DNA of 59,625 nucleotides, counting the filler. It is 4 parts of 4 records of this genome, joined end to end, with 100 filler letters (N's around TTAATTAATTAA, not from the genome) between each part and the next. Parts side by side here need not be neighbours in the genome. Positions count along the whole stretch, not along the records: positions 28,600 to 45,727 come from SRR31147125_15066; 3 more parts are not named here. One strand, written 5' to 3'. The position numbers and the translations under genes were made by a program. The notes under the pieces were generated by a model. It was not told where the DNA came from. It worked only from the letters and a program-made list of their open reading frames with translations, and did not search any database. Shown piece by piece: positions 6,731 to 45,827 of this stretch; positions within the stretch are counted from its first letter, which is position 1; each line of letters starts with the position of its first letter.

Positions 6731-6740
6731 TAACGCTGAC

Positions 6741-6779
6741 ATAAAACGCCGTTTCCGGTAAAATGAAACGGCGTTTTAT
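6741..6779. terminator. Intrinsic terminator-like hairpin after the ClpX-like gene
   Basis: Perfect 15-bp inverted repeat ATAAAACGCCGTTTC / GAAACGGCGTTTTAT. Confidence 0.8.
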
Positions 6780-6880
6780 CTATAATAGAAAATAATGGTA
6801 AATTAAAAGATGTGATTTCTAAAAACTGTCATTTTGACACACGATTACGAGAAACTTGTCAGAAACAGGATAAATTGCCA

Positions 6881-11215: not shown

Positions 11216-11219
11216 CTTT

Positions 11220-11729
11220 TTAATTGTTTTTTAGATAATCCAAAAGTAAGTCGCTATTAGGCAACGTTTTTACAATTGCTTCTAAAGGAATAAGATCATT
11301 GTGGTCAGCTGACTTGTAAGCCTCATCATGACTAAGACTTTTTAATTTTTGAAACGATAAACTGCCATATTCTTTTAATGCTATATCCAGACATTCTATA
11401 TCTGATTCACTCAAATAATCCCGGTTGGCCTCTCTTGTTGGTATGATACTATAACTTTCTACAGAAAATGCTGATTCAATAGGAATGTCTGGACAGTAAA
11501 AACTATCCCCCCGTGCTATTTTGATAAGATCATATACTCCGCTAGGGACTGGTCCATTGCTCATGGCTATATAATTATCACCACATATTAATCTTCCATA
11601 TTTTGAAAGATGATCTTTATCTGCAAAATACAAAACCTTAAGTGCATTATAGGTGTCGCTGCATTTTTCAACGATGAATAATAGCACTTCGATTGCCTTT
11701 TTGTGATCAAATTTAGACCTTACATTCAT
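11220..11729 (-). CDS. Panacea (DUF4065/SocA-like) domain antitoxin
   Basis: LKVLYFADKDHLSKYGRLICGDNYIAMSNGPVPSGVYD and LSESDIECLD...YG...LKSLSH signature motifs. Confidence 0.88.
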   Translation of the reverse strand: MNVRSKFDHKKAIEVLLFIVEKCSDTYNALKVLYFADKDHLSKYGRLICGDNYIAMSNGPVPSGVYDLIKIARGDSFYCPDIPIESAFSVESYSIIPTREANRDYLSESDIECLDIALKEYGSLSFQKLKSLSHDEAYKSADHNDLIPLEAIVKTLPNSDLLLDYLKNN

Positions 11730-19755: not shown

Positions 19756-19855
19756 NNNNNNNNNNNNNNNNNNNNNNNNNNNNNNNNNNNNNNNNNNNNT
19801 TAATTAATTAANNNNNNNNNNNNNNNNNNNNNNNNNNNNNNNNNNNNNNNNNNNN
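19756..19855. other. Assembly gap / artificial contig linker
   Basis: N run containing TTAATTAATTAA. Confidence 0.98.
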
Positions 19856-28499: not shown

Positions 28500-28599
28500 N
28501 NNNNNNNNNNNNNNNNNNNNNNNNNNNNNNNNNNNNNNNNNNNTTAATTAATTAANNNNNNNNNNNNNNNNNNNNNNNNNNNNNNNNNNNNNNNNNNNN
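28500..28599. other. Assembly gap / artificial contig linker
   Basis: N run containing TTAATTAATTAA. Confidence 0.98.
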
Positions 28600-28827
28600 A
28601 AAAAACGAGTCCGTCTTTTTATGATTATTTGTTTTTCTACTTGAATTTTAAGTAATAATTTTTAATTTTAAATGATACATTCCATAACTTTGTAATTCTT
28701 CAAGATGATCTCGTTAGCACGGAATGTTTTCGGGTAGACATTATTAGCTCATCGATTTTGATAATATAGAATATTATGTCTTATATTGATTGTCATATCG
28801 ATGGTTTCAAAAGAACAACTATAAAAA

Positions 28828-30255
28828 ATGAAGGAAGACAGAATGAAGGAAGAAAAACAAAAATCTCCTGCGGCTGATGAGAGCAAAAAAATTGACCGAC
28901 GAGATTTCTTGCAGGGAGCAGCCACACTTCCGGTTCTGGGGCTTTTTGGCTATGCTGTTCAACAGCAGAAAAGTATGGAAAAAAAACAAAAAGCGGCCAA
29001 ACTTGCAGCCAAACCTGTTGCCGAAAATCTTGAAGACCTCAATATTGGTCTCATTGGTGTGGGTGCGCAAGGAAGTGTGTTGTTAACCGCAATGCTAAAA
29101 TTGCCAAATCTACGTTTTCGCGCTGTCTGTGATATCTGGACCGAATACAATCAAAAAAGAACCGTTCGATTGTTAAAAAAATACAAATATGATGTTAACG
29201 CTTATGAAGATTACCGTGTTATGTTGGAAAAAGAAAAAGATCTGGATGCTGTTATCATTGCCACGCCGGATTTTTGGCATTCCCAAATGACAGTTGACTG
29301 TTTGAATGCAGGTCTCCATGTTTACTGTGAAAAAGAGATGTCCAACACCCTGGAAGGCGCCAGAAAAATGCTGCAGGCATCACGAGAAACCGGCAAATTG
29401 CTTCAAATCGGCCATCAAAGACGAAGTAATCCCAAATATATACACTGTTATAACAAGATCATTAAAGAATCGGGTATGCTTGGACGTATTGTGACATCCA
29501 ATGCGCAATGGAATCGAGCCGTACAGCCGGATATTGGATTTCCTAAAAAGTATGCCATGTCAGAGGCGCGTTTAAAGAAATATGGATTTAAATCTATGTC
29601 TCAATTCCGTAACTGGCGCTGGTATAAGGGCCTTGGTGGCGGCCCCATTGTCGATTTAGGTTCTCACCAGATTGATATTTTCAGTTGGTTCCTCGAGACA
29701 AACCCGATTTCTGTTATAGCCAGTGGTGGCACGGATTATTATGCCCCCAAATCACACGAGTGGTACGATACGGTTATGGCGATTTATGAATATGAAACCA
29801 AAGATGGCCGTTCCAGAGCCTATTACCAGACTCAGACAACAAACAGCAGTCAGGGCTATTATGAGAATTTTATGGGTGATCAGGGTACACTCTTTATTTC
29901 AGAATCAGGAAGTCGTGGCAGTGTCTATCGTGAAACATCTGCTCCGGCATGGGATGAATACATCAATAAAGGTATTATCTCGGCTCCAAAAGCTCAGGCA
30001 CAAGAAGCGGCAACAGATGCTGTTTTGGATGTCCGTGAAACAGTTACACCAGATGAACATGAGCTTAACATTGTCTTTAACGATCCCTATCATATGCCTC
30101 ATTTAAGTAACTTTTTTAATAGTGTTCGTGGATTAGAGACATTGAACTGTCCGGGAGAGATCGGGTATGAAACAGCTGTGGCTGTTCTCAAGGTAAATGA
30201 GGCAATTGAAGCCGGCCGTAAACTGGAATTTGATCCAAAAGAATTTCATGTTTGA
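28828..30255 (+). CDS. Tat-exported Gfo/Idh/MocA family NAD-dependent oxidoreductase
   Basis: Twin-arginine motif DRRDFLQ; Rossmann GLIGVGAQG; DAVIIATPDFWH, HVYCEKE, QIGHQRRS, NWRWY..GGG...DLGSHQID. Confidence 0.92.
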   Translation: MKEDRMKEEKQKSPAADESKKIDRRDFLQGAATLPVLGLFGYAVQQQKSMEKKQKAAKLAAKPVAENLEDLNIGLIGVGAQGSVLLTAMLKLPNLRFRAVCDIWTEYNQKRTVRLLKKYKYDVNAYEDYRVMLEKEKDLDAVIIATPDFWHSQMTVDCLNAGLHVYCEKEMSNTLEGARKMLQASRETGKLLQIGHQRRSNPKYIHCYNKIIKESGMLGRIVTSNAQWNRAVQPDIGFPKKYAMSEARLKKYGFKSMSQFRNWRWYKGLGGGPIVDLGSHQIDIFSWFLETNPISVIASGGTDYYAPKSHEWYDTVMAIYEYETKDGRSRAYYQTQTTNSSQGYYENFMGDQGTLFISESGSRGSVYRETSAPAWDEYINKGIISAPKAQAQEAATDAVLDVRETVTPDEHELNIVFNDPYHMPHLSNFFNSVRGLETLNCPGEIGYETAVAVLKVNEAIEAGRKLEFDPKEFHV

Positions 30256-30296
30256 TCAGTAAACGATGATGCTGTTATACTCTTAAATAGGATAAA

Positions 30297-30797
30297 ATGA
30301 TTATGGAAAAAAGAGAAATGAATAACATACAAATGATCGCGTTAGTTATCTTGAGGGTCACCATTGGCTGGCATTTTCTTTATGAAGGTGTCGCCAAATT
30401 GATGAAGCCAGGCTGGTCAGCAGCTGGTTTTTTGTCACAATCCAAGTGGATTTTTGCGCCAATTTTTAAATGGATCGCCAGCACACCTGAAGTATTGAAT
30501 ATAGTCAATCTGATGAATATCTGGGGCCTTGTTTTCATCGGCCTTGGTCTGATTGTCGGGGCATTTACCCGTACTGCCAGTGTTGCCGGTATTTTGCTTG
30601 TATTGTTATATTATTTTTGTAATCCACCTTTTGCGGGCCTTTATTATTCCATACCCATGGAAGGTAATTATTTGGTAATTAACAAAAATTTAGTGGAAGT
30701 AGCCGCATTAATCCTGATTGCTGTTACCTACAGCGGCCGATATCTTGGATTTGATCGACTCATTCACAAATGGATTAGCCAAAAAAAGGCAGCCTAA
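30297..30797 (+). CDS. DoxX/DoxD family membrane protein
   Basis: LRVTIGWHFLYEGVAK, WSAAGFL, EGNYLVINKNLVE, GFDR; about four TM helices. Confidence 0.88.
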   Translation: MIMEKREMNNIQMIALVILRVTIGWHFLYEGVAKLMKPGWSAAGFLSQSKWIFAPIFKWIASTPEVLNIVNLMNIWGLVFIGLGLIVGAFTRTASVAGILLVLLYYFCNPPFAGLYYSIPMEGNYLVINKNLVEVAALILIAVTYSGRYLGFDRLIHKWISQKKAA

Positions 30798-30862
30798 TAG
30801 ATATATTCAAGAGGTTTACCAATTAGAATATCCCTGCATGACTATGCAGGACGGGAGTTTTG

Positions 30863-30903
30863 AAAATAAAAGGGATCAATAATCTTTGATCCTTTTTATT
30901 TTT
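30863..30903. terminator. Bidirectional terminator-like hairpin
   Basis: AAAATAAAAGGGATCAA / TTGATCCTTTTTATTTT. Confidence 0.75.
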
Positions 30904-31193
30904 ATAGGGGAAGGGATTTAAAACTAAATCGAAAAAAGCCTTACTACCTTGCAATAGCTATTTAGAACATTGTAACTTTCTTCATTTTCTCTGTATCAGT
31001 TTGAAATAACGAATTCCTCAATGAGTCAACCCGGTTTGCGCGACCGAGAAGAAACAAGCCTAATATCCGTGCTCTTTTTTTAATATGTTTTCAGATGTAA
31101 CAGAATGTGGTTTTTTCAAAATAACTTTTAAATGAAAAATAATACTCTCTTTATATGATATTGATTCATTTTAGCTTTGGAGAAATTTACATC

Positions 31194-32161
31194 ATGTCAG
31201 CTTTTAAGAGGATAACCATCTGGGTGTGTTGTTTAGGTATTTTAACTTCTGTTACATGTTTGAAAAAGAATACCAGGCCTTCCTCAAAAACAACAGATTA
31301 CAAGTTTGCTTTTATTACCTGCACTGTAAATGCTACATTTTTCAAACCGGTTATCAAGGGAATGACTGATGCCGCAGAAATGGCAGGTGTGCAATGTGAT
31401 TTTATGGGAACTGAAGGTGTGGATATTCCTGCTCAGATCGAGATGGTTCGACGCGCCGTTACTGAGGGTTATGATGGTATTGCGCTCAATATTATTGATC
31501 CTGTTGCGTTTGATGTTGTTATTCAGGAAACCATGGATAAAGGTGTGCCAGTTGTTGGTTTTAATGTTGACGATTTTGAGACGCCTAATGCGCGTTTGAG
31601 TTCAGTAAATCAACAGTTATTCAAAGCCGGGGAACGGTTGGCCACTTTTTATTACCCCATATTCCGAAAAATGCTTTTGTTTTGATGACCATGCATGATG
31701 AAGGTGTGTCTGCTCTGGAGGACAGGTTACATGGACTGCAAAACGTGTTACAAAAAAAGGATGTAAAGTATAAAGTCCTGATTACCGGCAATAATTCTAC
31801 AAAAGGAGCTGAAATTATAGCTGATTTTTTAAAGAAAAATATAAATTATAACATTATTTTAGGTACAGGACAAGCAGATACAGAAGCGGCTGGAAAAACT
31901 ATTGAAAAATATTTTAGCAACAAAGGTTATTGGTCAGCAGGATTTGATTTGTCTCCCAAAACACTGCAATGCATCAGGGATGGTTTTATTCGCTGCACAG
32001 TGGATCAACAACCCTATATTCAGGGATTTTATCCGGTTGTACAATTGACTCACTATCTTCGTTATGGAATTATGCCATCCAATATCGATGCCGGCGCTGC
32101 TATTATTGATTTAGAGAATGTGGATCAGGTATCAAGACTAACCGAACAAGGGTACAGGTAA
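31194..32161 (+). CDS. Type I periplasmic sugar-binding protein, probable lipoprotein (split at T-run 31646-31650)
   Basis: FFKPVIKGMTDAA, GVPVVGFNVD, AGFDLSP, TVDQQPYIQGF; adding one T joins the two ORFs. Confidence 0.85.
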
Positions 32162-32187
32162 AATGTTGAAAAAGGTGGGAGTCGATT

Positions 32188-33837
32188 ATGCAGATTGAGA
32201 GCCTGGATTTAGGAATTATTTTTCTTTATTTTATTTTTATTGTGGGATTTGGATGTTGGGTTGGTATTCGCAACAAAAAAACGGACCAGGCCCATGGTTA
32301 CTTTTTAGCTGGCAAGTCGTTGCGCTGGCCCATGATTGGTTTGGCTTTGTTTGCAACCAATATATCTACGGTGCATCTGGTAAGCCTGGCTGAAGAAGGA
32401 TATACCAATGGACTTGCCTATGGAAATTTTGAATGGATGGCTCCGTTTACTCTCATTTTACTCGCCCTGTTTTTTGCGCCTTTTTATATCCGCTCAAGGG
32501 TAACAACATTACCGGATTTTCTTGAAAAACGTTACTCCCGTGCCAGTCGGGATTGGCTTTCTCTTCTTTCCATCATATCAGCGATTTTTATTCATATTGG
32601 CTTTTCCTTATATGCGGGTGCAGTTGTATTGGAAGGTATGTTTGGCCTTGATAAAATGGTGAGTATAGTCCTGATCGCTGGCCTGACAGGCGTATATACC
32701 ATTGTTGGTGGATTAATTGCTGTTGTCTTTACAGAGTCGGTACAGACGATTATTTTGCTGTTGGGTGCCATTATTCTTACAGCTATTGCCTATGTAAAGG
32801 TTGGCGGCTGGAGTGGTTTGCAACAGGGCGTGGATCCGCATTTACTCACTGTGCTTCGGCCACATGGTGATCCCTCAGGCTTACCATGGTACTCTATAAT
32901 ATTGGGATACCCGATTATTGGTATATGGTACTGGTGTACGGATCAGACAATTGTACAACGCGTTCTGGGAGCCAAAGATGAAAACCATGCACGTATCGGG
33001 CCTTTGTTTGCCGGATTTATTAAAATATTACCTGTTTTTATTTTTGTTTTACCCGGATTGATTTGTCTGGCATTGATCAATAAAGGTTTACTTCCGGCTC
33101 TTCCTCTCGCAGAGAATGGAAAAGTGGATGCTGCTCAGACTTTTTCACATATGATTGCCCATCTGTTGCCAATCGGACTTCGGGGACTTGTTGCTGCTGC
33201 ACTGATCGCTGCACTGATGAGTACTGTTTCAGGGGCTTTGAATTCTGTGGCTACTTTATTTACGTTTGATTTTTATAAACGCTGGTTTCCCAATACATCA
33301 GAAAAAAGAATGGTTTATGTCGGTCGTATTGTGACGTTTACAGGTATGATCCTCGCCGTGCTATGGTCGCCTCTTTGTGGTCGATTCCCCACTGTTTTTC
33401 AGGGGATAAATACAGCTATTTCTTATCTGGCTCCACCTATAACCGTGGTGTTTGTTGCAGGAGTCTTTTGGAAGAAAGCGTCTTCAAAGGCTTCTTTTAT
33501 CACTCTTGTTTGTGGTTCTGTGTTGGGTTTTGTTGTATTTATTCTGGACTTTACGCATGTTCTGAGTCGTTTTAAAGAGACACATTCCGCATTTTCCTGG
33601 TTAAATTTCATGATGATAAGCTTTCTTCTTGCTATGATTTGTGCAACGATTATGATCGTTATGTCCTTCATCTACACCGAACCCATGACCGAAGAGAGGC
33701 GAAAACTTGTTTGGTCATCACCCCTGGAACCACTACGGGAACAAGGATGGTCAGGAATAGGAAACTATAAATGGCTCAGCGCCACTCTGGCGACATGTAT
33801 GATTCTACTTTATTTTGTATTTACATTTTTAGTCTAG
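32188..33837 (+). CDS. Sodium:solute symporter (SSS, SGLT-like)
   Basis: YFLAGKSL, ATNIST, TLPDFLEKRY, WYWCTDQTIVQRVL, AALMST; multiple TM helices. Confidence 0.95.
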   Translation: MQIESLDLGIIFLYFIFIVGFGCWVGIRNKKTDQAHGYFLAGKSLRWPMIGLALFATNISTVHLVSLAEEGYTNGLAYGNFEWMAPFTLILLALFFAPFYIRSRVTTLPDFLEKRYSRASRDWLSLLSIISAIFIHIGFSLYAGAVVLEGMFGLDKMVSIVLIAGLTGVYTIVGGLIAVVFTESVQTIILLLGAIILTAIAYVKVGGWSGLQQGVDPHLLTVLRPHGDPSGLPWYSIILGYPIIGIWYWCTDQTIVQRVLGAKDENHARIGPLFAGFIKILPVFIFVLPGLICLALINKGLLPALPLAENGKVDAAQTFSHMIAHLLPIGLRGLVAAALIAALMSTVSGALNSVATLFTFDFYKRWFPNTSEKRMVYVGRIVTFTGMILAVLWSPLCGRFPTVFQGINTAISYLAPPITVVFVAGVFWKKASSKASFITLVCGSVLGFVVFILDFTHVLSRFKETHSAFSWLNFMMISFLLAMICATIMIVMSFIYTEPMTEERRKLVWSSPLEPLREQGWSGIGNYKWLSATLATCMILLYFVFTFLV

Positions 33838-33853
33838 TTCAAGAGGTTTATTT

Positions 33854-35095
33854 ATGAATTCACGTGAACGAATAATAGCGGCTATTGAGCACAGGGAACC
33901 GGACAAGGTCCCACTGGATCTTGGCTCTACACCCAGTTCCGGTATTTCGGCTATCGCTTATAATAATTTGAAACAACACCTGGGATTCACAAAGGGGTAT
34001 ACTCGCGTCTATGATGTGGTCCAACAGTTAGCTGAACCGGAGGATGATATCCTTGATTACCTAAAGATCGATGTTGTTGACATTGGCAGAATGTTCAACG
34101 ATAAAGATAAGGACTGGTATAACGTTAAACTGGCTGATGATTCTAAAGCACAATATCCTGCCTGGTTCAAACCTGTTGTAAGGGAGAATGGAGTCACTGA
34201 AGCAGAGGTCAATGGCGAGGTGATTGCCCGGCAACCAATTGATGGAACTTTTTTTGATCAAACATACTTTCCTTATCTTGATGCTTATCCGGATAGCTTT
34301 AAAGGCTTACCTGAGGCAATGAAAAAAGTTCTGTGGGCGGCCCTTGTCCATAGTCCATGGGATCATGCTTCTGAACCGGATTTTTGGCAAAAGCTTCGGG
34401 AAAAGACCATAAAACTTCGCCAGAATACAAATCGTGCCCTGATGGTTGTGTGTGGCTGCAACTTGTTCGAGTGGGGAACCTTTTTACGGCGAATGGATAA
34501 CTTTCTCATGGATATCCTGATGGATCCGGTTCATGTCGAAGCCTTGTTGGACGCTTTAATGGAAATCCATCTGGACACTCTTGAGAAGGTCTGTAAAGCT
34601 GTAGGGGATGTCGTCGATATTCTGCGTTTTGGTGATGACCTGGGCATGCTGCATGGACCGTTCATGTCACCCGCTTCCTATAAACAGATTTTCAAACCCC
34701 GACATAAACTGTTAAACGAGTATGTTCACAAAAACAGTAACATGAAAACATTTCTACATTCCTGTGGTTCGATCTATGCTTTGATGCCTGACTTGATTGA
34801 GGCAGGTTACGATGTTATTAATCCTGTACAGACGAATTGCCGGGACATGGATCCGAAGATTCTAAAAAAGGAATTCGGTAAAAGTATTACCTTTTGGGGA
34901 GGAGGCTGTGATACCGCTTCTGTTCTGAACAACGCAACTCCAAAGCAGGTAAAGGAGCATGTTCTCGAAAGACTTGGTATATTTTCACTTGGTGGTGGTT
35001 TTGTCTTTAACACGATTCACAATATCCTTCCAGAAGTTCAGGCAGAGAACATTGTGGCCTTATTTGAAGCTGTGAATGAATTCAATGGAAGGTGA
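33854..35095 (+). CDS. Uroporphyrinogen decarboxylase / MtaA-CmuA methyltransferase superfamily protein
   Basis: MNSRERI..HREPDKVPLD start, GDDLG, HSCG, NPVQ, FWGGGCDT, GGFVFNTIHNI. Confidence 0.85.
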   Translation: MNSRERIIAAIEHREPDKVPLDLGSTPSSGISAIAYNNLKQHLGFTKGYTRVYDVVQQLAEPEDDILDYLKIDVVDIGRMFNDKDKDWYNVKLADDSKAQYPAWFKPVVRENGVTEAEVNGEVIARQPIDGTFFDQTYFPYLDAYPDSFKGLPEAMKKVLWAALVHSPWDHASEPDFWQKLREKTIKLRQNTNRALMVVCGCNLFEWGTFLRRMDNFLMDILMDPVHVEALLDALMEIHLDTLEKVCKAVGDVVDILRFGDDLGMLHGPFMSPASYKQIFKPRHKLLNEYVHKNSNMKTFLHSCGSIYALMPDLIEAGYDVINPVQTNCRDMDPKILKKEFGKSITFWGGGCDTASVLNNATPKQVKEHVLERLGIFSLGGGFVFNTIHNILPEVQAENIVALFEAVNEFNGR

Positions 35096-35248
35096 TTCAC
35101 TATTATTAGCAGAGCTTTTATTTAATAGGTGTTGTTAAAATAAAATGAATTGTGTAAAATATCAAAAGTTTTTACTTATGGGTATGAAAAGAATATAACT
35201 CAAGAATAATACCAATTACATGTTTTAAAAAAAATGGGAGTAACAGCC

Positions 35249-36400
35249 ATGGAGAGAATTTTTTTAACGATCTTTTTACTTTGTGCCTTTGTAACCATTT
35301 ACGCCCAGGAAGCATTTAATGGTTTGAACGTCGATATGAGCAACTTGTATCGACTCTCAAATGCAAAAACACGATCGATTAGTCCGGAGAATTTTACCGG
35401 TGAAAAGGGCAAAGGTGGCATGGCTACCCTGGAAGAGGGAAGTGCCGCAAAAGCAGCCCGTGATTTGGGCCAGGGATGGAAGGTGAATCCCTATATCCGC
35501 ATTAAATCCAAAGAAGTATTTACATTAGCTGAGATTGATGGCCCGGGTGCTATTCAACATATCTGGATGACCCCTGCAGGCACCTGGAGATATTCGATTC
35601 TCAGGTTTTACTGGGATGATGAGACAGAGCCGTCTATTGAAGTGCCGGTTGGTGATTTCTTTGCAGCTGCATACGAATATAAACAAATTTCTTCATTGCC
35701 TGTGGCTGTGAATCCTGGCAGCGCATTTAACTGTTACTGGGTGATGCCATTCCATAAAAAGTGTAGAATAACGATGGAGAATATTGGTGAGAAGGAAATG
35801 ACTCTATACTATCAGATTGATTACACCCTGACAGATATTCCAAAGGATGCTGCCTATTTCCATGCTCAATTTCGGCGGGAAAATCCTGTACCTTACAAAG
35901 AGGTTTACACGATTGTGGACGGGATAAAAGGCAAAGGACAGTTTGTTGGTACCTACATGGCCTGGCAAACAAATAACAATGGTTGGTGGGGAGAGGGGGA
36001 AATCAAGTTTTATATGGACGGAGATAAGGAATTTCCTACCATCTGTGGCACAGGTACAGAGGACTATTTTTGTGGTTCCTATGGCTTTGCAGGTAATACG
36101 GACAAAGGCCGGCAGTATATTGATTACACCACCCCATATGTGGGATTTCATGTGATTAGACCGGATGAAAATCTTTTGAGAAAATCACAAACCCGGTTTG
36201 GTATGTATCGATGGCATATTCAGGATCCGGTGCGTTTTGAAAAAGATTTAAAGGTGACCATGCAGGCTTTGGGATGGCGCAGTGGTGGTCGTTATCTGCC
36301 TTTGCAGGATGATATCGCTTCTGTTGCCTTTTGGTACCAACAAGAGCCGCATCATTCGTTTCCTAAATTACCATCTAAAGACGATTTGGAAATACAATAG
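35249..36400 (+). CDS. Secreted DUF2961 / glycoside hydrolase family 172 protein
   Basis: Signal peptide; TRSISPENFTGEKGKGG, GPGAIQHIW, WWGEGEIKF, GTGTEDYF, YRWHIQDP. Confidence 0.92.
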   Translation: MERIFLTIFLLCAFVTIYAQEAFNGLNVDMSNLYRLSNAKTRSISPENFTGEKGKGGMATLEEGSAAKAARDLGQGWKVNPYIRIKSKEVFTLAEIDGPGAIQHIWMTPAGTWRYSILRFYWDDETEPSIEVPVGDFFAAAYEYKQISSLPVAVNPGSAFNCYWVMPFHKKCRITMENIGEKEMTLYYQIDYTLTDIPKDAAYFHAQFRRENPVPYKEVYTIVDGIKGKGQFVGTYMAWQTNNNGWWGEGEIKFYMDGDKEFPTICGTGTEDYFCGSYGFAGNTDKGRQYIDYTTPYVGFHVIRPDENLLRKSQTRFGMYRWHIQDPVRFEKDLKVTMQALGWRSGGRYLPLQDDIASVAFWYQQEPHHSFPKLPSKDDLEIQ

Positions 36401-36614
36401 GAAAGAATCAGCTTGCAAAAGAAAAGTGACAGGTGACTGTCTGCAGCAGGCGCGAAGCTGTAATCAGTAATCCCTGTTACTTATAATATGTTGACCTGGT
36501 TTAAGCTTGATTTAAATAAAAGCGTGATCAGGCCTTAAAAAGCTGTATAGGGATTTTAAGTGATAGCCTGATTTTAATTCTCTTTCTAAAGCAGGTTTCA
36601 ATTTTCAGTTACAT

Positions 36615-36655
36615 AAAAAAAGGATCAATATCATACACATATTGATCCTTTTTTT
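36615..36655. terminator. Bidirectional terminator between convergent operons
   Basis: Perfect 17-bp inverted repeat AAAAAAAGGATCAATAT / ATATTGATCCTTTTTTT. Confidence 0.8.
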
Positions 36656-36888
36656 GTTGCAGAAAACAGGTCCCGTAAAGCCTTTTCAAAATTTAATGTG
36701 GAGGACAGCTTTACATTATGTCAGTTAGCCGAGCGCTTTATGGGAAGACATGTCGAAAATATTGTCTGGGTAAATATTTTTGTGAATGTCGTTTTTCCTG
36801 GATCGTGATAAAGAATAGGCAATTGCCTGAAAAAGGATTTTCAATTTATCCTATATAGCCTTTTTATATCATCCGATCTCTGATTTAT

Positions 36889-38214
36889 CTATTTCGTTTC
36901 TGATTGTGCTTCATAACTGTCGGCATTCCAGGTGAAAATGAATAATAGAGCAGCCATTAATGCAGCCAGAACCAGTACCAAAAAAACAGCATCCCAGCCA
37001 TGGTGGTCAACCGTATAACCGAGCCCCCATCCTGACAGAATACCGCTCAGGTAGCCAAAAATTCCGGTTAAACCATTGGCCGATGCGGCAGCTCTTTTAG
37101 AAGCAAGGTTTGCCGCAATGACACCGACAAGACATTGCGGACCGTATATGAAAAATCCAATAGAACATAATAATAAGGTATAAATCAGTTCAGAGTGAAC
37201 AGGTAATTTCCAGAAAAGTAAAATACTTGTAGCACAGGCCAGCATATAAAAGAAACAGGCGCGTCCACCATGGGATTTAAAGATATAGTCCATCATCCAT
37301 CCTCCGACAAGCATACCGATTATGCCAAAGCCTTCATAACCGGCAACCATCCATCCGGCATGGTGTAATTCTGTACCTTTCATTTCTGTTAGAAAGGTGG
37401 GTCCCCAGTCAAGAATGGCATAGCGAACCGTATAAAGGAAAAAATTGGCAAAACTGAGAATCCACATAACCGGATTTTTAAAAACATGCTGTATGACAAA
37501 TTTTTTAAAACTTTGGTCTGAAAAACCAGGTTCTTTAAATGTCGTTGGTTCTTTGTACAGTTCAACAGGAGGGAGGCCTAAAGATTCGGGTGTATCCCGT
37601 AAACGGTTCACTAAAAAGAACACTCCCATAAAGGCAAGGGCGGCAGGTACATAAAAACACAAACGCCAGTCGTACAGGACCAGGAAGCTATTTAATAATA
37701 AAACCAAAGCAGCACCAATGGAATGGGATGTATTCCATATGGCGAACTTTGTTCCCCTTTCTTTTACAGAAAACCAGTTCGTTAAACTATGAGCGCAGGG
37801 TGGAAATCCCATCCCCTGAAACCAACCGTTCAGGAGCCAGAAGGTACCAAAAGCCAAAACCGTACTGCTCATACCAAAGAATAAGCTCATAAAAGCTGAA
37901 AGAGCTAACCCGGTTGCCATAAAGTAGCGTGGATTCACACGATCACCGAGAATACCATTTGTAAATCTGGATATACCATAAAGAACGCCATTAATAGTTA
38001 AAAACAGACCCAGATCGGCTTTGGAAATTCCCAATTCGGCTTCCATACCAGGCATGGCAAGCGACAGGTTTTTGCGAACAAAATAAAAAAGCGCATAGCC
38101 AATCATGGTGGAATACATAATGCGAATTCGCCAGTAACGGTATTGTTTTTTGATCTCATTTGGATTGGTAATTGTCTGGGCTTTGGGTGGAACGGTTTTG
38201 TACAGATCAAACAT
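36889..38214 (-). CDS. MFS organophosphate:Pi antiporter (GlpT/UhpC/PgtP family)
   Basis: YRYWRIRI, GYALFYFVRKN, NGWFQGMGFPPC, WNTSHSIG, RDTPESLGLPP, FFIYGPQ, ANGLTGIFGY. Confidence 0.9.
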   Translation of the reverse strand: MFDLYKTVPPKAQTITNPNEIKKQYRYWRIRIMYSTMIGYALFYFVRKNLSLAMPGMEAELGISKADLGLFLTINGVLYGISRFTNGILGDRVNPRYFMATGLALSAFMSLFFGMSSTVLAFGTFWLLNGWFQGMGFPPCAHSLTNWFSVKERGTKFAIWNTSHSIGAALVLLLNSFLVLYDWRLCFYVPAALAFMGVFFLVNRLRDTPESLGLPPVELYKEPTTFKEPGFSDQSFKKFVIQHVFKNPVMWILSFANFFLYTVRYAILDWGPTFLTEMKGTELHHAGWMVAGYEGFGIIGMLVGGWMMDYIFKSHGGRACFFYMLACATSILLFWKLPVHSELIYTLLLCSIGFFIYGPQCLVGVIAANLASKRAAASANGLTGIFGYLSGILSGWGLGYTVDHHGWDAVFLVLVLAALMAALLFIFTWNADSYEAQSETK

Positions 38215-38376
38215 GTCAGCGTATCCCTTTCCAGTTTGAGTTTCGTTATCAGTAGAGCGGATGCGATAGAAAATGCGTCAACAAAGGTACTAAAAAATCA
38301 GGCAAAATAACAGGTCATATGTGATGAAAAGTTATTTTTTACGTAAATCTTGCAGTGAATTAAAAGATAGATAACA

Positions 38377-38769
38377 TTATCGAATGTTTTCCGTTTTGGC
38401 CATACTTCTTGTTGCTACCAGATCTGCGCCAGTATTTAAAATATTTTCTATTAAAATATCGCCCATATTTATAGGAGCGTCTAATTGGATGGAATTAATG
38501 ATATTCATACATGCAAAATTTAATTTTTTGGGAATGGCCTTACTGGTTTTGACAGGAAGTCTCTTAAGATATGTGTGATTTATTTTGACTGTAGATGTGA
38601 TCACACGGGTTGGATTTGTAAGTTCCTTTATGGCATAGTCAATGCCCTTTTTGCATGAATTTCCTGTCACTTTATAACCACTTTTTTCTCCATCATTTTT
38701 TGTGATTGTCAAACGACATCCCATTGGGCAGTTAATACAAATCAGATTTTTAGAATCGTTCGTATTCAT
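38377..38769 (-). CDS. DUF1667 CxxC-containing small subunit
   Basis: CINCPMGC...GNSCKKG..YA..E...PTRVITSTV, LPVKTS; third gene of the G3P-dehydrogenase-like module. Confidence 0.88.
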   Translation of the reverse strand: MNTNDSKNLICINCPMGCRLTITKNDGEKSGYKVTGNSCKKGIDYAIKELTNPTRVITSTVKINHTYLKRLPVKTSKAIPKKLNFACMNIINSIQLDAPINMGDILIENILNTGADLVATRSMAKTENIR

Positions 38770-38778
38770 ATTTAATCC

Positions 38779-40042
38779 TTAATCAACTCGAAGAGTTATG
38801 TCCTGTATCGAATGGTCTGCAAATATATCGGCGTTTAATTTTATTTTTTCCATTTCACCTGGTGCCAGATGTCTTTTTAATACTTTTTAGTAATTTCCCA
38901 TTGCTCATGATGTTCAGGTTTGTATCTTTATAGACCCGACGTACCCGGAAAAAGAGTTCCAGTTTATCCTCAATGTTTTCAATTCTTATTTTCTGCGGTA
39001 CAATATAACTGACTCCCTCACCAGCCTTGACGAATACGTTTTTGTTTTTATTGTCGAATTTTCCTTTAATATAAAGGGCGGCATTGCGTCCGGCGCGCCT
39101 GCTTTCTTCGGTGACAAAATCAACTAAATCGTGAACATGAACAACATTACCGCAGGCAAAAATACCCTCAATAGAGGTTTCCATTGCTTCGTTAACAACA
39201 GGTCCCCGGGTAACCGGATCAAGTTCGATACCTGCTTTTTGTGTTAGTTCATTTTCCGGAATCAGTCCAACAGAGAGAAGAAGTGTGTCACATTCGTATT
39301 CTATTTCAGTGTTTGGATCAGGTTTTCTATTTTTATCCACCTGAGCAACCATAACACTTTCTAATCTATCATGGCCTTTTATTTTCACAATAGTATGATT
39401 TAATAACAGGGGGATATCATAATCATCAAGACATTGAACGATGTTCCGTGCAAGTCCGCTGGAATAGGGCATGATTTCCACAACAGCCTCTACGCTTGCG
39501 CCTTCGAGTGTTAATCTCCGGGCCATAATAAGACCGATGTCACCGGATCCTAATATAATGGCTTTTTTACCAACCATGTACCCTTCCATGTTGATGAAAC
39601 GTTGAGCACAACCGGCCGTATAAATCCCGGCAGGGCGTGTACCTGGTATAGCCAGTGCTCCCCTGGTTCGCTCACGGCAGCCCATGCACAGTATGATGGC
39701 TTTGGCACGGATCTGCATGAGGCCATCCTGATTGTTGATGGCTGTTATGGTTTTATCAGCAGCCATGTGCAAAACCATCGTGTTTAATTTATACTCGATT
39801 TTCTCTGATGCCAAAAGAGTGATAAACCTTTCCGCGTATTCCGGACCTGTTAATTGTTCTTTAAATATGTGAAGACCAAAGCCATTATGAATACATTGCT
39901 GAAGGATACCTCCTAATTCCCGATCTCGTTCAACAACTAAAATTCGATTTACGCCGTTATTCTTTGCTTCCAGTGCCGCTGCAAGTCCAGCCGGCCCACC
40001 TCCGATTACAATCAGATCGTATTCGCTCATATTGTTATCCAC
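38779..40042 (-). CDS. FAD/NAD(P)-dependent pyridine nucleotide-disulfide oxidoreductase (C-terminal frameshift near 38875)
   Basis: GGGPAGLAAA, GGILQQCIHNGFG, GCRERTRG, GSGDIGLIMARR, ACGNVVHVHDLVD; shifted frame continues RHLAPGEME... to a stop at 38779. Confidence 0.88.
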
Positions 40043-40072
40043 GTGATATTAATGAAATAATCAAACATGTTG

Positions 40073-41509
40073 TCAATTTGCCCTTTTCGTTTTGCCGGTC
40101 AAAAGGAAGGAATCGTGATTATCTTTTACAATGTTTTCAATTTTTTCATCGAGTTCTCTTGCCAGGATGTCTATGACGCGAGGCAGACAAAATCCACCCT
40201 GACAACGTCCCATTCCCGGTCTGACCCTCTTTTTAATCCCATCCACGGTTCGCGCACCAGCCTTTCGATGAATGGCATCGACAATCTCACCCTCTGTAAT
40301 GCTTTCACATCTGCAAATGATTTTTCCATAGCGTGGATCTTTTTCAATGACTCTTTGTTTGCTTTTATCATCCAGATGTTGAAAATGTATAGTTGGTCTT
40401 CTTTTCGGGTTAAAGTTCTTTTTTACGAGTCCGTCAAAAAAGTGATCGACTAATTGGATTACGAATGTGGCAATGGATGGTGCTGAGGATAAACCAGGCG
40501 ATTTAGTGCCGGCAACATTGATAAATCCTGGAGTGTCAACAGATTCTTTGATGATAAAATCTCCTGTGTCCGGTTCCGCTCTTAATCCGGCAAAAGTGGT
40601 AATGGTTTGATCAAAGGGGATATCCGGAACAGATTTTTTTGCCATTTTTCGGACATACTCTAAACCGTTCTGGGAGGTGTGTAAACTCTGTTTATTATCT
40701 GTATCTTCCGCATTTGGTCCAATAATGATATTTCCATGAACCGTGGGTGTTAAAAGAATTCCTTTCCCCATTTGTCCCGGACACTGGAAAATGACATGGT
40801 TCACCATTGCCCCTGCATTTTTATCCAGAATAAAATATTCACCCTTTCTTGGGCTAATAGAAAAACGCGGCGAGCACACCATGTCGTTTATTTTATCAGT
40901 ATACACACCAGAGCAATTTATCACGACTTTAGATTTTATTTCCTGTTGTGATGTAGCAAGGTGAAAGGTATTGTTTTGTTTTGTAATCCCGAGGATCTCA
41001 TTGTTTAGAAAGAGCTCCACGCCGTTTTCGATCGCATTTTCAGCTAATGCAATAGCCAACTCCCAGGGGCCTATAATACCACAACCTGGAGCATACAGAG
41101 CTCCGGTTACATCTTTGGATAGATATGGTTCACGCTCTAGAACTTCTTTTTTATCAAGTATTTTTAAATCCGGTATCTTGTTAGCCAGACCTCTCTGATA
41201 TAATTCAGATAGTGTATTCAATTCATTCTTGTTAAAAGCAACAACCAGTGAGCCAATTCTTTTGAACGGAACGTCCAGTTCTCCACAAATGTGGTCGAAT
41301 AGAGGATTACCACTGGCATTAAATTTTGCCATCAGTGTCCCTGGTTTGGCATCATATCCGGCGTGAATAATTGCACTATTTGCTTTTGTCGTTCCGTTTG
41401 CGACATCATTTTCTTTATCGATAAGGTTTATCTTCAAGTCATAGCGGGATAACTCTCTGGCTATAAACGTTCCAATGATCCCTGCACCGATAATGCTCAC
41501 GTCATACAT
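40073..41509 (-). CDS. FAD-dependent oxidoreductase with BFD-like [2Fe-2S] domain (glycerol-3-phosphate dehydrogenase / LhgO-like)
   Basis: IIGAGIIG, TTKANSAIIHAGYD, PRKGEY, SPGLSSAP, CRCE...GRCQGGFC. Confidence 0.9.
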   Translation of the reverse strand: MYDVSIIGAGIIGTFIARELSRYDLKINLIDKENDVANGTTKANSAIIHAGYDAKPGTLMAKFNASGNPLFDHICGELDVPFKRIGSLVVAFNKNELNTLSELYQRGLANKIPDLKILDKKEVLEREPYLSKDVTGALYAPGCGIIGPWELAIALAENAIENGVELFLNNEILGITKQNNTFHLATSQQEIKSKVVINCSGVYTDKINDMVCSPRFSISPRKGEYFILDKNAGAMVNHVIFQCPGQMGKGILLTPTVHGNIIIGPNAEDTDNKQSLHTSQNGLEYVRKMAKKSVPDIPFDQTITTFAGLRAEPDTGDFIIKESVDTPGFINVAGTKSPGLSSAPSIATFVIQLVDHFFDGLVKKNFNPKRRPTIHFQHLDDKSKQRVIEKDPRYGKIICRCESITEGEIVDAIHRKAGARTVDGIKKRVRPGMGRCQGGFCLPRVIDILARELDEKIENIVKDNHDSFLLTGKTKRAN

Positions 41510-41587
41510 TTATTTTATCCTGTTGTTACTGTTTTCAATAAATTAAGAGTAAATCTATAAAGTGCTGTTGTTATGAATCGGCAAAAG

Positions 41588-42556
41588 TCAGGATGTTTGT
41601 TTTTCATATTCAATCAAAATTTCGGCTGCTGTTTCATTATCTGTGATCAAAGAGTTGATCAATTTCCCTTTTATGGCGCCCAGTATGGCCTTTGCTCTAT
41701 TTTTTCCGCTTGTAACAGCGATCACTTTTGGTGTCTTTCTTAATTGTTCCAGGCTCATACTGATGACGCGATCTCTATATTCCGTTTCACATTCATTACC
41801 TTGATCATTGTAGAATCGTCCGCATATTTCACCTATCACTCCTTTTTGCTCCAATCTGTGTGCATCGTCGGGCTTTAAAAAGCCGCGATCGATAAATACA
41901 GAATCAGATAACACACCGATACCCACAAGGGCTATATGAGCATTGTTCATTTGTTCGAGAACAGCTTTTACCTGTTCGTGTTCAATAAAAATATCTCTTG
42001 ATTTCTTGTCAGGTGCTATGGCTGGAGTTTGTAACTGATAAAATCGACCATTCCATTTTTTTGCACATTTTCTGCCTAATTCAATCGCATCATAATCATG
42101 AATGTTGGCATCAATTTGACCCATTGTTTGCAGAACAACAATACCGGGTGTTGATCGTTCCGGTTTCATTTTTTCAACAAGTTGATGGATTTGTCGGCCT
42201 GCTGAAATACAAATGACATTGTTGGGATGGAAAAGGGAGCTAATTTCTGGTGCAGCATAATGGGCGACGGTCCGGTGGTGTTGTTCCAGGTTTTGCCCAC
42301 TAATGGTTTGGACAACAATGGCGTTTGACAAAGAAAGTTTTTCTATTAATTGGGCTTCAAGATCCTCTTGTCTGGGATAAAAAGGTTCAACGGAAATGCG
42401 AATGATACCTCGTTTGCGGGCCTCGGTCAATAATCTGGACACCTTGGCCTGTGAAACACCCGCCATCCTGGCAACTTCGGCCTGTCCCAAATTATCATTA
42501 TAATAGAGTGAGGCAATCATGGTTAAAAGCTGATCATCATATTTTTTATAGTTCAT
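41588..42556 (-). CDS. SorC/DeoR family sugar-phosphate-binding transcriptional regulator
   Basis: LYY...QAEVA...SQAKVSRLLTEARKRGII HTH; ALVGIG, GEICGRFY, LITD. Confidence 0.93.
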   Translation of the reverse strand: MNYKKYDDQLLTMIASLYYNDNLGQAEVARMAGVSQAKVSRLLTEARKRGIIRISVEPFYPRQEDLEAQLIEKLSLSNAIVVQTISGQNLEQHHRTVAHYAAPEISSLFHPNNVICISAGRQIHQLVEKMKPERSTPGIVVLQTMGQIDANIHDYDAIELGRKCAKKWNGRFYQLQTPAIAPDKKSRDIFIEHEQVKAVLEQMNNAHIALVGIGVLSDSVFIDRGFLKPDDAHRLEQKGVIGEICGRFYNDQGNECETEYRDRVISMSLEQLRKTPKVIAVTSGKNRAKAILGAIKGKLINSLITDNETAAEILIEYEKQTS

Positions 42557-42698
42557 TTTAATCTTACTCTATATTGATGAAGATGTTTTTTATATTATTT
42601 ACAATTAAGGTTTTTTTTATAATGGCTGAATATTCTGCTGGTGTTGTTGCTTTTTGTTGAGTCGTTTATCGTTTATGGTAATAGTCAATTCCTATTGC

Positions 42699-44065
42699 TT
42701 AGGATTCAAACCAGAAACCTTCGGGCTGGAAAAGGTCATCAACACAGGTGTTCCAACATCCGGATTCCAGGGCAAAATCCAGTATTGTGTAGCGTTTACG
42801 GATCAGTTGTGCCTGACTGTAGCTTTTGTGTAATCTTTTTAGATCAATACCAAAATGAGTTGATTTTGATGGCGCTTGTGCTTTGATAAGCATTTCCTGA
42901 AAGGCATATACCCCAACAAGTTGCGTTTTTAAAGACTTTTTCAAGTCAGGCCAGATAGACCTGGCTTTTAAAAGACGTTTTTCCAGTTCATGCGCATTTA
43001 TATATTTAGCTTCACTTTGTTCCAGTACCTGTTTGAAAACCTGTTCATCCGAAAAATTATCCTGAATTGTTTTTCGTACAGTATTTATATCCGGCCATCG
43101 TTTTTGGATACTATTCATGTTAGTATCTATTTGCGTTGAATCGATCTTTAAGATTCGGTCATATAATGCCTCAGATGCAAGAGAGCCGATAGCGACTTTG
43201 AAGCCATGAGAGGGGGAACACCATTAAACGTGTGATGCTGATTATCCCACAGGTGACTAAACTGATGATCGGCTCCGGAAGCCGGACGCGAGGATTGAGA
43301 TTTTTGCATGGCTAATCCACTCATGATCAGGCCTTCTATTAATTCGGCTAAGGTGGCCAATGTGCCTTCTCTGACCCCGTCCGGATTTGAGGTCCATTGG
43401 CGCAGATGATCCTGTACAATAGACCAGGCTGGTTGAGTGATTGCTTCTATTTCCAGAGCATCGGCAAGTATCCAGTCAGCTCCGGCAGGAATTTTGGCCA
43501 GTAGATCGGCATATCCGGATGCATTCATGCCTTTTGGAGCAGCGGCGATAATATTCAAATCAACGATGACCGCTCTGGGCGCGGGGCAAAAAAAGGTCTG
43601 TTTAAAATCCTGATATGTTATAGATGCCCCATAGGCTGTATAACCATCCATTGATGCAGCTGTCGCAACAGACATGTATTGCCGGTCACAATGATGTGCA
43701 GCCAGTTTTGTCACATCATTTATGGTGCCTGACCCAACAGCAATGGGAATAGCATTATGTGCTGACAAAATCTGTTCCAGTTGTTCGGCATATTTATATT
43801 CGGCATATAAGGATGGATCGTCAAAAATAAATGGATCAATGACCAGTTCGAGTTCATTTTTTAATAATTCGTGAACCTTTTTGCCGGCTGCTTTAAATGT
43901 ATTTGTGTCTGCTATGACGATCGCAGGAGCTGTACCAAAATTTTCTTTAAAATAAAAAGGAACAGATGACAGAGCGTCTGTGTCTATTACAACAGATTTT
44001 GTTGTGTTTGCATGGTATAGTTCTTTATTAATTCGATCCTGAGTTTTTTGGATAGCTAGAGTCAT
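42699..44065 (-). CDS. sn-Glycerol-1-phosphate dehydrogenase family protein (AraM/EgsA-like), split at G-run 43212-43216
   Basis: AVGSGTINDVTK, TAASMDGY, SGYADLLAK, SRPASGADHQFSH; restoring one base gives PSHGFKVAIG and joins ORF 42699-43118. Confidence 0.85.
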
Positions 44066-44143
44066 TGTTTTGGCCTGAATATAAAGTAATTTATGTATCT
44101 TTATTATTTTAGAATGGAAACGTATGGTCTTGATTCGTGTTAG

Positions 44144-44171
44144 TGAATATTTATTCATACATAATTATTCA
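44144..44171. promoter_or_regulatory. Candidate SorC-family operator (tandem palindromes)
   Basis: TGAATA-TT-TATTCA directly followed by TACATA-AT-TATTCA, about 80 bp upstream of the G1PDH start. Confidence 0.5.
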
Positions 44172-44400
44172 CCTTTTTAAAAATGCACTTTTTTTATAAC
44201 AAAGTCAATAAAAATATAAAAAAATTAAAAAAGGATTTATTTGATGATTTACGTACGCAATTTTATTTCATATCGCACTTTTGCTTTTTTCCATTTTTGC
44301 CTGGTGGTATGCATTTACTGAATAAATCCCGCCTCTGAATGTGTTAACAACACTGATGTGTTTTTAAATAAAAATCAAAATGTAAAGGGGAGGATAATGC

Positions 44401-45722
44401 ATGGCTGACAAGCTGTATGGAACAAATCTACCATCATCTGATATCATGCTCCAGGCATTTTATTGGGATGCTATGTGGAAGAATGAACCCGGGAGATGGT
44501 ATAAATTTCTCGAGTCCAAAGTTGAGGAGATAAAAAAAGCCAAAATAGGGTTGATCTGGATGCCACCGCCCAGCAAATCCCGGATATCTACCTTTGTCGG
44601 TTATACTCCAATGGATTATTATGACCTGGGAGAATATAAGCAGTGGGTACAAGACTGGGATAGCGATTTATCCACATACACCTGGTCACAACATCAGAGT
44701 GAATCAACGCTTTATGGCAAAAAGCAGGAACTGTTAAAATTGTTAAAAAAATTAAAGGCAAACGGTATCAGGCCTGTTGCTGATATTGTTATAAATCATA
44801 GGGCCGGACAGCAACATAATGAACAGGGAGAACGGATCCGTTGGAAAGGAGAGGATCACCAGATAACGAGCAAGAAAATGGCATGGGGTTATGAGACAAA
44901 CGATCCTGTAGAAATCACAAGAGGAACCGGTGGAGGCCATGTGCAGGATGATGGAGGAAGTGATTTTGGCGGCAACCTGGCTCATTCCTATCTTAAGGTG
45001 AGGGAAGAAATTAAAGAGTGGATGACCTGGCTCAAAAACGATATCGGTTTTGAAGGGTGGCGATATGACTATGTCAAGGGATATGCGCCACGACACCTGG
45101 GAGAGTATAATTACAGTACCAATCCGTATATCTCAATTGGAGAGTATTGGGGATCTGCTCAATCTATCTATAACTGGATCGATGGCACGGATCTGTTTGA
45201 TGTCAATAAAAAGTCAATGGCTTTTGATTTTCCCTTGCAACAGCATCTGAAGGACATATTCTGGGAGGTAAGCCATTTCAGCAACTGGCGGCCTGGAAAA
45301 ACAGTTTTATTTCCATTATGGGAGGGTGGCCGGCCAAAGCTGTCACTTTTCTGGATAATCACGACACTATCAGAAAGCCTTTCAGCGATTTTCCGGCAGA
45401 TAATAAGCGCTTGGTACAGGGATATGCCTTTCTGTTGACGCATCCGGGACTACCATGTATTTTCTGGAATCACTTGTTTAAACGGGATAACAGCTATGCG
45501 TATGACAAGATCATTGCTTTGTGTCAATTTAGAGTCATTAATCATATAACCAACCAATCATATGTGGATATCCTGGTAGCTGAACCGGATTGTTATACCG
45601 CCCGAATTAACGACAATATCATTATCAAAATTGGTGATTCTTTCTGGAGCCCGTATGGAATACCCGGATTTTGGGATCTCAAGCAATCCGGACATGGCTG
45701 GGCAGTGTGGAAGAGACAGTAG
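44401..45722 (+). CDS. Alpha-amylase, GH13 (plant-like architecture), split by frameshift near 45263
   Basis: MLQAFYW, IWMPPPS, VADIVINHR, GWRYDYVKGY, IGEYW, AVTFLDNHDT, QGYAFLLTHPGLPCIF, C-terminal IIIKIG...AVWK. Confidence 0.88.
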
Positions 45723-45727
45723 GCAGT

Positions 45728-45827
45728 NNNNNNNNNNNNNNNNNNNNNNNNNNNNNNNNNNNNNNNNNNNNTTAATTAATTAANNNNNNNNNNNNNNNNN
45801 NNNNNNNNNNNNNNNNNNNNNNNNNNN
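45728..45827. other. Assembly gap / artificial contig linker
   Basis: N run containing TTAATTAATTAA. Confidence 0.98.

Follow-up and report, generated by a model that had tools for sequence, protein, structure and literature searches.

The recycling of the sn-glycerol-1-phosphate (G1P) backbone of archaeal lipids, and of the G1P units in lipoteichoic acid, is poorly understood, and a row of six genes in the DNA studied here suggests one possible answer. The window, the whole stretch of 59,625 nucleotides (nt) that was analyzed, contains from 44065 down to 36889, all on the minus strand, genes for an AraM-like dehydrogenase, a SorC regulator, a DAO plus BFD protein, a Pyr_redox_2 flavoprotein, a DUF1667 protein and a GlpT-like antiporter, in that order. 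We interpret the row as a SorC-controlled operon for the catabolism of imported glycerophosphate, in which sn-glycerol-3-phosphate (G3P) would be oxidized by the three middle proteins, which are homologs of FngABC, and G1P by the AraM-like enzyme, both to dihydroxyacetone phosphate (DHAP). This interpretation, which is drawn from sequence comparison, has in our estimate about an even chance of being right. The host is best explained as an uncultured, anaerobic bacterium from sediment, of FCB type.

The window was put together from four draft-assembly contigs, with spacers between them of the form N44-TTAATTAATTAA-N44 at 19756-19855, 28500-28599 and 45728-45827. The spacers carry stops in six frames, and a SecY gene is cut at 28499. 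Genes that flank a spacer are therefore not neighbors, and the true context of the operon is 28600-45727. The initial annotation had described six co-oriented genes, and open reading frame (ORF) calls together with Pfam and NCBIfam searches bear out their order, strand, coordinates and identities. The gaps between the six genes are 12-162 nt and contain no terminator-like sites on the minus strand, which is weak evidence for an operon, and the genes are presumably co-transcribed; promoter and terminator scans returned site numbers not above those of shuffled sequence. The initial annotation was also right that the cluster contains neither a glycerol kinase nor a glycerol facilitator: among the scanned ORFs of at least 110 amino acids (aa) on contig 28600-45727, FGGY kinases and MIP channels have no match.

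The AraM-like gene (42699..44065, minus strand, ATG at 44065 and stop at 42699, approximately 455 aa) is spread over two frames in the deposited assembly, and the break lies at a run of five C on the minus strand near 43211-43216. Homologs read through this site, and the L017 ortholog aligns over its residues 8-280 in one frame and 283-449 (of 452) in the next. Sequencing run X1, probably that of the source sample, contains 98% of the sampled words, and its Logan contig (depth 32, spanning 39872-44205) is an independent assembly; in it an additional G behind 43211 brings the AraM-like gene back into a single frame. The break is an error of the deposited assembly, and the frameshift repair that the initial annotation had called for is superseded by the intact X1 contig. 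The possibility that the gene is a pseudogene is ruled out by the extra base. In the X1 contig set, TT is also inserted behind 38873 (depth 32.2 of 39.9), and the Pyr_redox_2 gene therefore ends at about 38782 (stop 38784-38782), 12 nt before the DUF1667 start. Other genes split between adjacent frames, which encode a ClpX-like ATPase (5196-6730), a periplasmic binding protein (31155-32161), an alpha-amylase (44401-45722) and, broken into three, a YesN-type response regulator (54653-56164), fit indel errors as well; among the split genes, the comparison with X1 covered the indels at 43211 and 38873.

The AraM-like protein belongs to the Pfam Fe-ADH_2 family (PF13685, 112.3 bits against a cut-off of 28), and the best curated model for its N-terminal part is the NCBIfam G1P dehydrogenase (G1PDH; EgsA/AraM, EC 1.1.1.261) model NF002022, at 149.7 bits. 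A full-length homolog, P0004, scores 147.5 bits on its best PDB match, the solved G1PDH structure 9h4x, which from its name and length we take to be AraM, 63-65 bits on archaeal G1PDHs and at most 39 bits on clear glycerol dehydrogenase (GldA) structures. The motifs GSGTI.D, S.DGYT, ASG.EH..SH and HG.KV are common to the AraM-like protein and 9h4x. Across 12 sequences, the residues G111-S-G-T-I-N-D117, D140, H267, H271 and the His of HG.KV, which lies just past the junction, vary little or not at all, and they line up with 9h4x; some of these conserved Asp and His residues are presumably the metal ligands. Alignment ranges against 9h4x indicate approximately 55 extra residues in the C-terminal domain. 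The family is large, with 6649 proteins at E ≤0.001 among 8000 scored candidates, and among the 120 matches listed almost all are 437-492 aa long (three are shorter, one of those partial), with identities of at most 64%. Homologs of 441-492 aa at 54-64% identity include several that their sources call sn-glycerol-1-phosphate dehydrogenase. A quick maximum-likelihood tree, which omits 11 loci because ORF calling missed their AraM-like gene, places the protein in a supported clade (SH-aLRT 95) of 15 rows, including L001, L002, L003, L005, L007, L014, L016, L017 and L032. This clade is linked to GlpT, the phosphodiesterase family GDPD and SorC, and its sister clade consists of Actinomycetota with FGGY kinases, a polyol permease and RpiB as neighbors.

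The gene neighborhoods of the AraM-like relatives fit a role in glycerophosphate use. With each species represented by one genome, 593 relatives turned up among the 601 stretches that matched; the analysis retained 80 loci, 71 of which have at least 1.5 kb of downstream sequence. The phyla represented are Planctomycetota, Verrucomicrobiota, Kiritimatiellota, Lentisphaerota, Bacteroidota, Fidelibacterota, Sumerlaeota, Acidobacteriota and Actinomycetota. Among cultured bacteria, the gene is carried by Gaoshiqia hydrogeniformans Z1-71, Pedobacter chitinilyticus CM134L-2 and Sphingobacterium sp. SGG-5, for example. Neighbors were counted within 6 kb by tblastn with the proteins of the window and family representatives. 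A GlpT-like gene is present in 45 of the 80 loci and lies directly downstream on the same strand in 39; a HAD-IIA phosphatase is found in 35, GDPD in 21, SorC in 20 and a GlpD-type G3P dehydrogenase in 13. ORF clustering with Pfam gave similar counts (GlpT-like 40, HAD-IIA 32, GDPD 22, SorC 16, GlpD 11, RpiB 7, permease 10, FGGY 8) and also identified SusC/D neighbors in Bacteroidota loci. The typical cassette reads [SorC or DeoR] - [GlpD] - GDPD - AraM-like - GlpT-like - HAD-IIA. In L017 the AraM-like, SorC and GlpT genes are contiguous, which is the order of the window without the Fng genes.

The SorC/DeoR-type regulator (41588..42556, minus strand) combines a helix-turn-helix domain with a Sugar-bind domain (PF04198, 212.8 bits), scores 187.9 bits on the NCBIfam model for Bacillus-type DeoR, under its cut-off of 420, and is 58% identical to the SorC protein in the same position in L017. 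The GlpT-like protein (36889..38214, minus strand) is an organophosphate:phosphate antiporter (OPA) family member of the major facilitator superfamily (MFS; MFS_1, 171 bits). Its best solved match is E. coli GlpT (1pw4, 321 bits, residues 4-428 of 441), and three motif pairs are conserved in the alignment, FVRKN with LVRKN, TSHS with CAHN and TVRY with LLRY, which we take to correspond to the phosphate-binding arginines R45 and R269 and the histidine H165. It is 64-73% identical to the transporters directly downstream of the AraM-like gene in L001, L003, L016, L017, L036, L054 and L055.

The remaining three genes are adjacent, with gaps of 30 nt and, after correction from the reads, 12 nt. The FngA-like gene (40073..41509, minus strand) encodes a DAO domain (233.9 bits) followed by a C-terminal BFD-type [2Fe-2S] domain (Fer2_BFD, 54.6 bits). 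The FngB-like flavoprotein gene (38782..40042, minus strand; uncorrected ORF 40042-38855; Pyr_redox_2, 111 bits) is the one corrected by the two T of the X1 contig, and its uncorrected ORF has 395 aa compared with 421 aa for the FngB of L092. The FngC-like gene (38377..38769, minus strand; DUF1667, 112 bits) encodes an N-terminal four-cysteine motif. The same arrangement of a DAO plus BFD protein, a flavin adenine dinucleotide (FAD) oxidoreductase and a DUF1667 protein forms FngABC (PF2005-2007) of P. furiosus, described by Schut, Poole and Adams in October 2026 (PMC13689815). Compared by spacing pattern, not by residue alignment, Cys399/401/436/441 of the FngA-like protein correspond to Cys407/409/448/453 of P. 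furiosus FngA, and Cys11/14/18/39 of the FngC-like protein to Cys9/12/16/35 of P. furiosus FngC, where the four cysteines hold a [4Fe-4S] cluster (PMC13689815). FngABC is reported to be electron bifurcating: G3P and reduced ferredoxin are oxidized jointly and NAD+ is reduced, and according to that paper the enzyme exists because the G3P/DHAP couple, at -190 mV, cannot drive the reduction of NAD+ at -320 mV (PMC13689815).

The same authors caution that many FngABC homologs have no glycerol-related neighbor and probably use other polyols as substrate (PMC13689815), and we therefore examined the neighborhoods of the nearest FngA relatives, which comprise 33 metagenome loci, 11 of them at 48-58% identity. 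The G3P-responsive antiterminator GlpP adjoins FngA in 14 of the 33 loci, including nine of the 11 closest. A true GlpK, above the NCBIfam equivalog cut-off, is present in three of the 33 (L094, L096 and L112), two of which are among the 11 closest. HAD-IIA, GDPD and a TRAP transporter also occur near FngA in L090-L092. The placement of the FAD module in glycerol and G3P loci, which the initial annotation had stated, agrees with these neighborhoods, and they support, short of proof, G3P as the probable substrate of the FngABC homolog. As a separate observation, L090-L092 and L095, where the closest FngABC relatives lie, contain a further cassette of glycerophosphodiester type, with the TRAP transporter DctQM, HAD-IIA, the GlpP antiterminator and FngABC, with GDPD in L091, and L092 has a formate-dehydrogenase-like gene set downstream of FngABC.

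Three arrangements that are only distantly related to one another, namely the operon of the window, L001 and L134, place a gene of the G1PDH family next to an FngA-type gene. In L001 (Sedimentisphaerales) the FngABC trio lies directly upstream of the AraM-like gene, and its FngA is 39% identical to the FngA-like protein of the window. In the same locus, the DUF1667 and AraM-like frames at 5181-7055 are merged into one 624-aa ORF, and SorC and GlpT are fragmented; the ORF may be a fusion or the result of assembly errors of a like kind. L134 (4449-13930 of G031:C15, from a relative of G002) encodes a 446-aa Fe-ADH_2 protein that is 29% identical to P0004 over most of its length. Its order on one strand is GDPD, Fe-ADH_2, FngA-like, FngB-like, HAD-IIA and an OPA-family MFS protein, and a DUF1667 gene is absent; FngA and FngB are approximately 35% and 30% identical to those of the window and the MFS protein is 29% identical to the transporter. 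GlpD occupies the Fng position in the cassettes of aerobic or respiratory carriers. Judged from gene content, the recurring design is a predicted importer, a G3P-type flavoenzyme and a G1PDH-type NAD(P) enzyme. The conserved synteny without glpK that the initial annotation had looked for thus exists for the AraM-like and GlpT pair, which is widespread, but the combination with the FAD/BFD trio is rare, being found in one of the 80 loci and in the paralogous L134.

The proposed pathway would begin with the antiporter, which would take up external glycerol phosphate in exchange for internal phosphate; phospholipid head groups, teichoic acids and archaeal lipid backbones would be the sources. The FngABC-type complex would convert G3P to DHAP, with reduced ferredoxin making the reduction of NAD+ feasible, and the AraM-like enzyme would act on the opposite enantiomer, converting G1P to DHAP with NAD(P)+ and being pulled forward by glycolysis. 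SorC would sense a phosphorylated intermediate. The glycerophosphate polymers of walls and of lipoteichoic acid are enantiomeric (PMC7086022), and Phaeobacter has been reported to grow on G1P with carriers that accept both enantiomers (PMC12718374, December 2025). That paper presents these as the first G1P uptake systems, G1P transporters having been undocumented before, and its accessible text names no G1P-degrading enzyme (PMC12718374).

All of the component families, FngABC as an enzyme and, since 2025, bacterial G1P uptake are already known. Literature searches over the main text of papers turned up neither a catabolic function of any G1PDH-family enzyme nor a connection of that family with a GlpT-like antiporter, nor its pairing with FngABC. 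We advance the wider proposal, at somewhat less than even confidence, that the 455-aa clade is the missing catabolic G1P dehydrogenase and that the GlpT-like protein paired with it acts as an MFS G1P/G3P:phosphate antiporter. With these two proteins, bacteria of the PVC and FCB groups could use archaeal lipid backbones, lipoteichoic acid and the head groups of phosphatidylglycerol as nutrients, and the operon of the window would be an anaerobic version, with a ferredoxin-dependent FngABC for G3P and the AraM-like enzyme for G1P.

Several observations weigh against the catabolic interpretation, and they are given here and with the alternatives that they favor. None of the three kinds of protein reaches the score of its equivalog model: full-length homologs of the AraM-like protein score 150.9-174.4 bits on NF002022 against a cut-off of 413, the best NCBIfam model for the FngA-like protein, type 2 G3P oxidase, gives 372 bits against 460, and the transporter scores 365 bits on TIGR00712 (GlpT) against 632.55. 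The Fng trio neighbors the AraM-like gene in a single one of the 80 loci, L001, and an AraM-like gene was found in none of the 33 FngA loci. Thermodynamics is the main difficulty. If the potentials for G3P are extended to its enantiomer, the oxidation of G1P by NAD(P)+ would face the same +130 mV gap, so that, where G3P oxidation itself requires FngABC, a plain NAD(P) enzyme would run more easily toward G1P; catabolism of G1P would need a strong glycolytic pull, or else the reaction would go the other way. The import of glycerophosphate followed by two dehydrogenases, as envisaged by the initial annotation, fares unevenly: the GlpT-like, HAD-IIA, GDPD and GlpD neighbors of the family speak for it, and NAD-linked oxidation of G1P is uphill.

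The alternative that survives best, unlikely though worth serious weight, is one that the initial annotation had also named: the imported compound is another polyol phosphate, for instance a tetritol or pentitol phosphate set free from teichoic acids of the ribitol or erythritol type, and the dehydrogenases act on different polyol phosphates or in successive steps. The warning of Schut, Poole and Adams about FngABC homologs outside glycerol contexts favors it (PMC13689815). Among the 80 AraM-like loci, RpiB is a neighbor in 13, an RbtT/DalT-type polyol permease in eight and an FGGY kinase that is not GlpK and resembles pentulose kinases in seven, which suggests other polyol phosphates for some members of the family, and these three are the associates of the Actinomycetota sister clade. 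The transporter itself discriminates poorly, with approximately 365 bits on each of the UhpC, GlpT and PgtP models, all under their cut-offs. The erythritol pathway of Brucella combines SorC regulators with GlpD-like and RpiB-like enzymes. However, Pfam and NCBIfam searches of the ORFs of at least 110 aa on the contig of the operon revealed no RpiB, kinase or polyol permease, and the clade of the AraM-like protein is the one linked to GlpT, GDPD and SorC. The nearest FngA relatives stand under GlpP with GlpK, a G3P-specific context, and the GDPD neighbors indicate glycerophosphodiesters.

It is distinctly less probable that the operon serves synthesis or racemization, with FngABC turning imported G3P to DHAP and the AraM-like enzyme reducing DHAP to G1P for a PcrB/GGGPS-type ether lipid or an envelope component. 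Thermodynamics would favor the reduction of DHAP, and the only characterized bacterial relative, B. subtilis AraM, is biosynthetic: it makes G1P for lipid even though its gene lies in a catabolic operon beside a HAD-IIA gene (PMC13400652, PMC5059525), and gene context can therefore mislead. PcrB (PF01884) is present in three of the five carrier genomes tested, including the two closest, G002 and G003. Since the next-best Fe-ADH_2 matches in these two are AroB and GldA, neither genome has a G1PDH-type gene besides the 455-aa one; combined with the presence of PcrB, this keeps the biosynthetic alternative alive. On the other side, PcrB is absent from the carrier G001 and from the complete genome G005, and in G002, G003 and G004 it is not near the cassette. 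A survey of 121 Bacteroidota genomes found the 455-aa family in one only (G005, E ≤1e-60), which lacks PcrB. PcrB was over its cut-off in 61 genomes and strong (E <1e-30) in 53, all of them without the 455-aa family, so PcrB in Bacteroidota does not depend on that family. With one carrier in 121, the family is too rare in Bacteroidota for a proper 2x2 test, and the survey shows its uncoupling from PcrB only. The archaeal G1PDH model matched six of the 121 genomes at E ≤1e-25, all far below its cut-off and five of them at 91-105 bits; with that model a glycerol dehydrogenase reaches 91.8 bits. The patchy, cassette-bound distribution of the 455-aa family, in company with importers, phosphodiesterases, SusC/D and GlpD, would be expected of an accessory catabolic gene.

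Least probable, and in our view very unlikely, is that an FngABC module for glycerol phosphate was recently inserted by chance into an AraM-like/SorC/GlpT operon of unrelated function. In favor of this, L017 has the operon but no Fng genes, 79 of the 80 AraM-like loci lack the trio, and the trio does look inserted because the best FngA matches in 31 genomes related to G002 are only 36-37% identical and located elsewhere in those genomes. Against it, the insertion preserved strand, tight spacing and the downstream transporter, two more juxtapositions distant in sequence exist in L001 and L134, and GlpD, the aerobic G3P counterpart, holds the same place in 13 of the 80 cassettes.

The rest of the operon's contig encodes a GFO/IDH oxidoreductase, a DoxX protein and a divergent, split alpha-amylase (44401-45722). 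On the plus strand at 31155-36400 a split periplasmic sugar-binding protein, an SSF symporter, a URO-D/MtaA-like protein and a DUF2961 protein are encoded consecutively, a set of uncharacterized uptake and processing genes convergent with the glycerophosphate operon. An inverted repeat at 44143..44172 (no strand; 12-nt arms, 6-nt gap, 92% complementary), approximately 80-105 nt upstream of the AraM-like start, is no more than a candidate operator for SorC: its core word occurs at chance frequency, and the pattern matches four of 133 loci, none of them an AraM-like locus, so that it lacks conservation at related loci. Rhamnosidase and ABC genes beyond 45828 were set aside as context since they lie on another contig. 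Elsewhere in the window, a SocA/Panacea-domain antitoxin-like gene (11220-11729, minus strand) is followed by a 151-aa ORF without a Pfam match (region 10760-11729), and the two may form a toxin-antitoxin pair. A Bacillota label suggested weakly by TGT clusters of a protein atlas is contradicted by genome comparison; the closest genome to the window is the one carrying L017, with a TGT protein 73% identical. Runs X2 and X3, which are marine sediment metagenomes, contain small pieces only, 90-99% similar, and these are no proof of habitat.

If the catabolic interpretation is true, a large family of known sequence, at present annotated for lipid synthesis, would instead mark catabolism and so indicate where necromass of archaea and Gram-positive bacteria is turned over in sediments, soils and guts, and a candidate MFS transporter for G1P would be gained. 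The operon would also show an anaerobe pairing a bifurcating G3P enzyme with a second, enantiomer-specific dehydrogenase.

Comparison with known systems places the operon between several better-studied arrangements. The classical glycerol regulon (glpF-glpK-glpD) has a facilitator and a kinase, and neither has a match here among the ORFs of at least 110 aa in 28600-45727. The glpTQ, glpABC and glpD genes of E. coli offer a closer parallel, with import by an antiporter followed by oxidation to DHAP, and GlpT is the best solved relative of the transporter. They differ in regulation, since a SorC-type protein takes the place of the DeoR-type regulator GlpR, and in FngBC taking the place of GlpBC; moreover, there is no GlpQ on the contig, and the operon includes one more dehydrogenase, which is of NAD(P) type and belongs to the G1P family.

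P. furiosus FngABC (PF2005-2007) shares with the trio of the window its three subunits, their order and the cysteine motifs for the [2Fe-2S] and [4Fe-4S] clusters, and its operon also includes a glycerophosphodiesterase (PMC13689815). Here the partners are an antiporter and an AraM-like protein without a glycerol kinase, and both the substrate and electron bifurcation of the homolog are proposed by analogy. The accessible text on the P. furiosus enzyme does not mention G1P dehydrogenase partners (PMC13689815). The GpxBCD/UgpB system of Phaeobacter sp. MED193 resembles the proposed pathway in the use of G1P as carbon source and in carriers that do not discriminate between enantiomers; it relies on an ABC transporter, and its catabolic enzyme is unnamed in the accessible text, in contrast to the MFS antiporter and adjoining candidate dehydrogenase found here (PMC12718374).

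The closest parallel to the AraM-like protein is B. subtilis AraM, a Ni2+-dependent G1P dehydrogenase whose neighbor is the HAD-IIA phosphatase AraL. The two proteins have in common the Fe-ADH_2 family and the catalytic motifs, and the 455-aa family likewise has a HAD-IIA gene nearby in 35 of the 80 loci. They differ in length, the protein here having approximately 455 aa with approximately 55 extra residues in the C-terminal domain, and in its score below the NCBIfam cut-off. The known role of AraM is the synthesis of G1P for PcrB lipid, and arabinose genes stand beside it, whereas a GlpT-like importer, GDPD and G3P dehydrogenases stand beside the 455-aa family.

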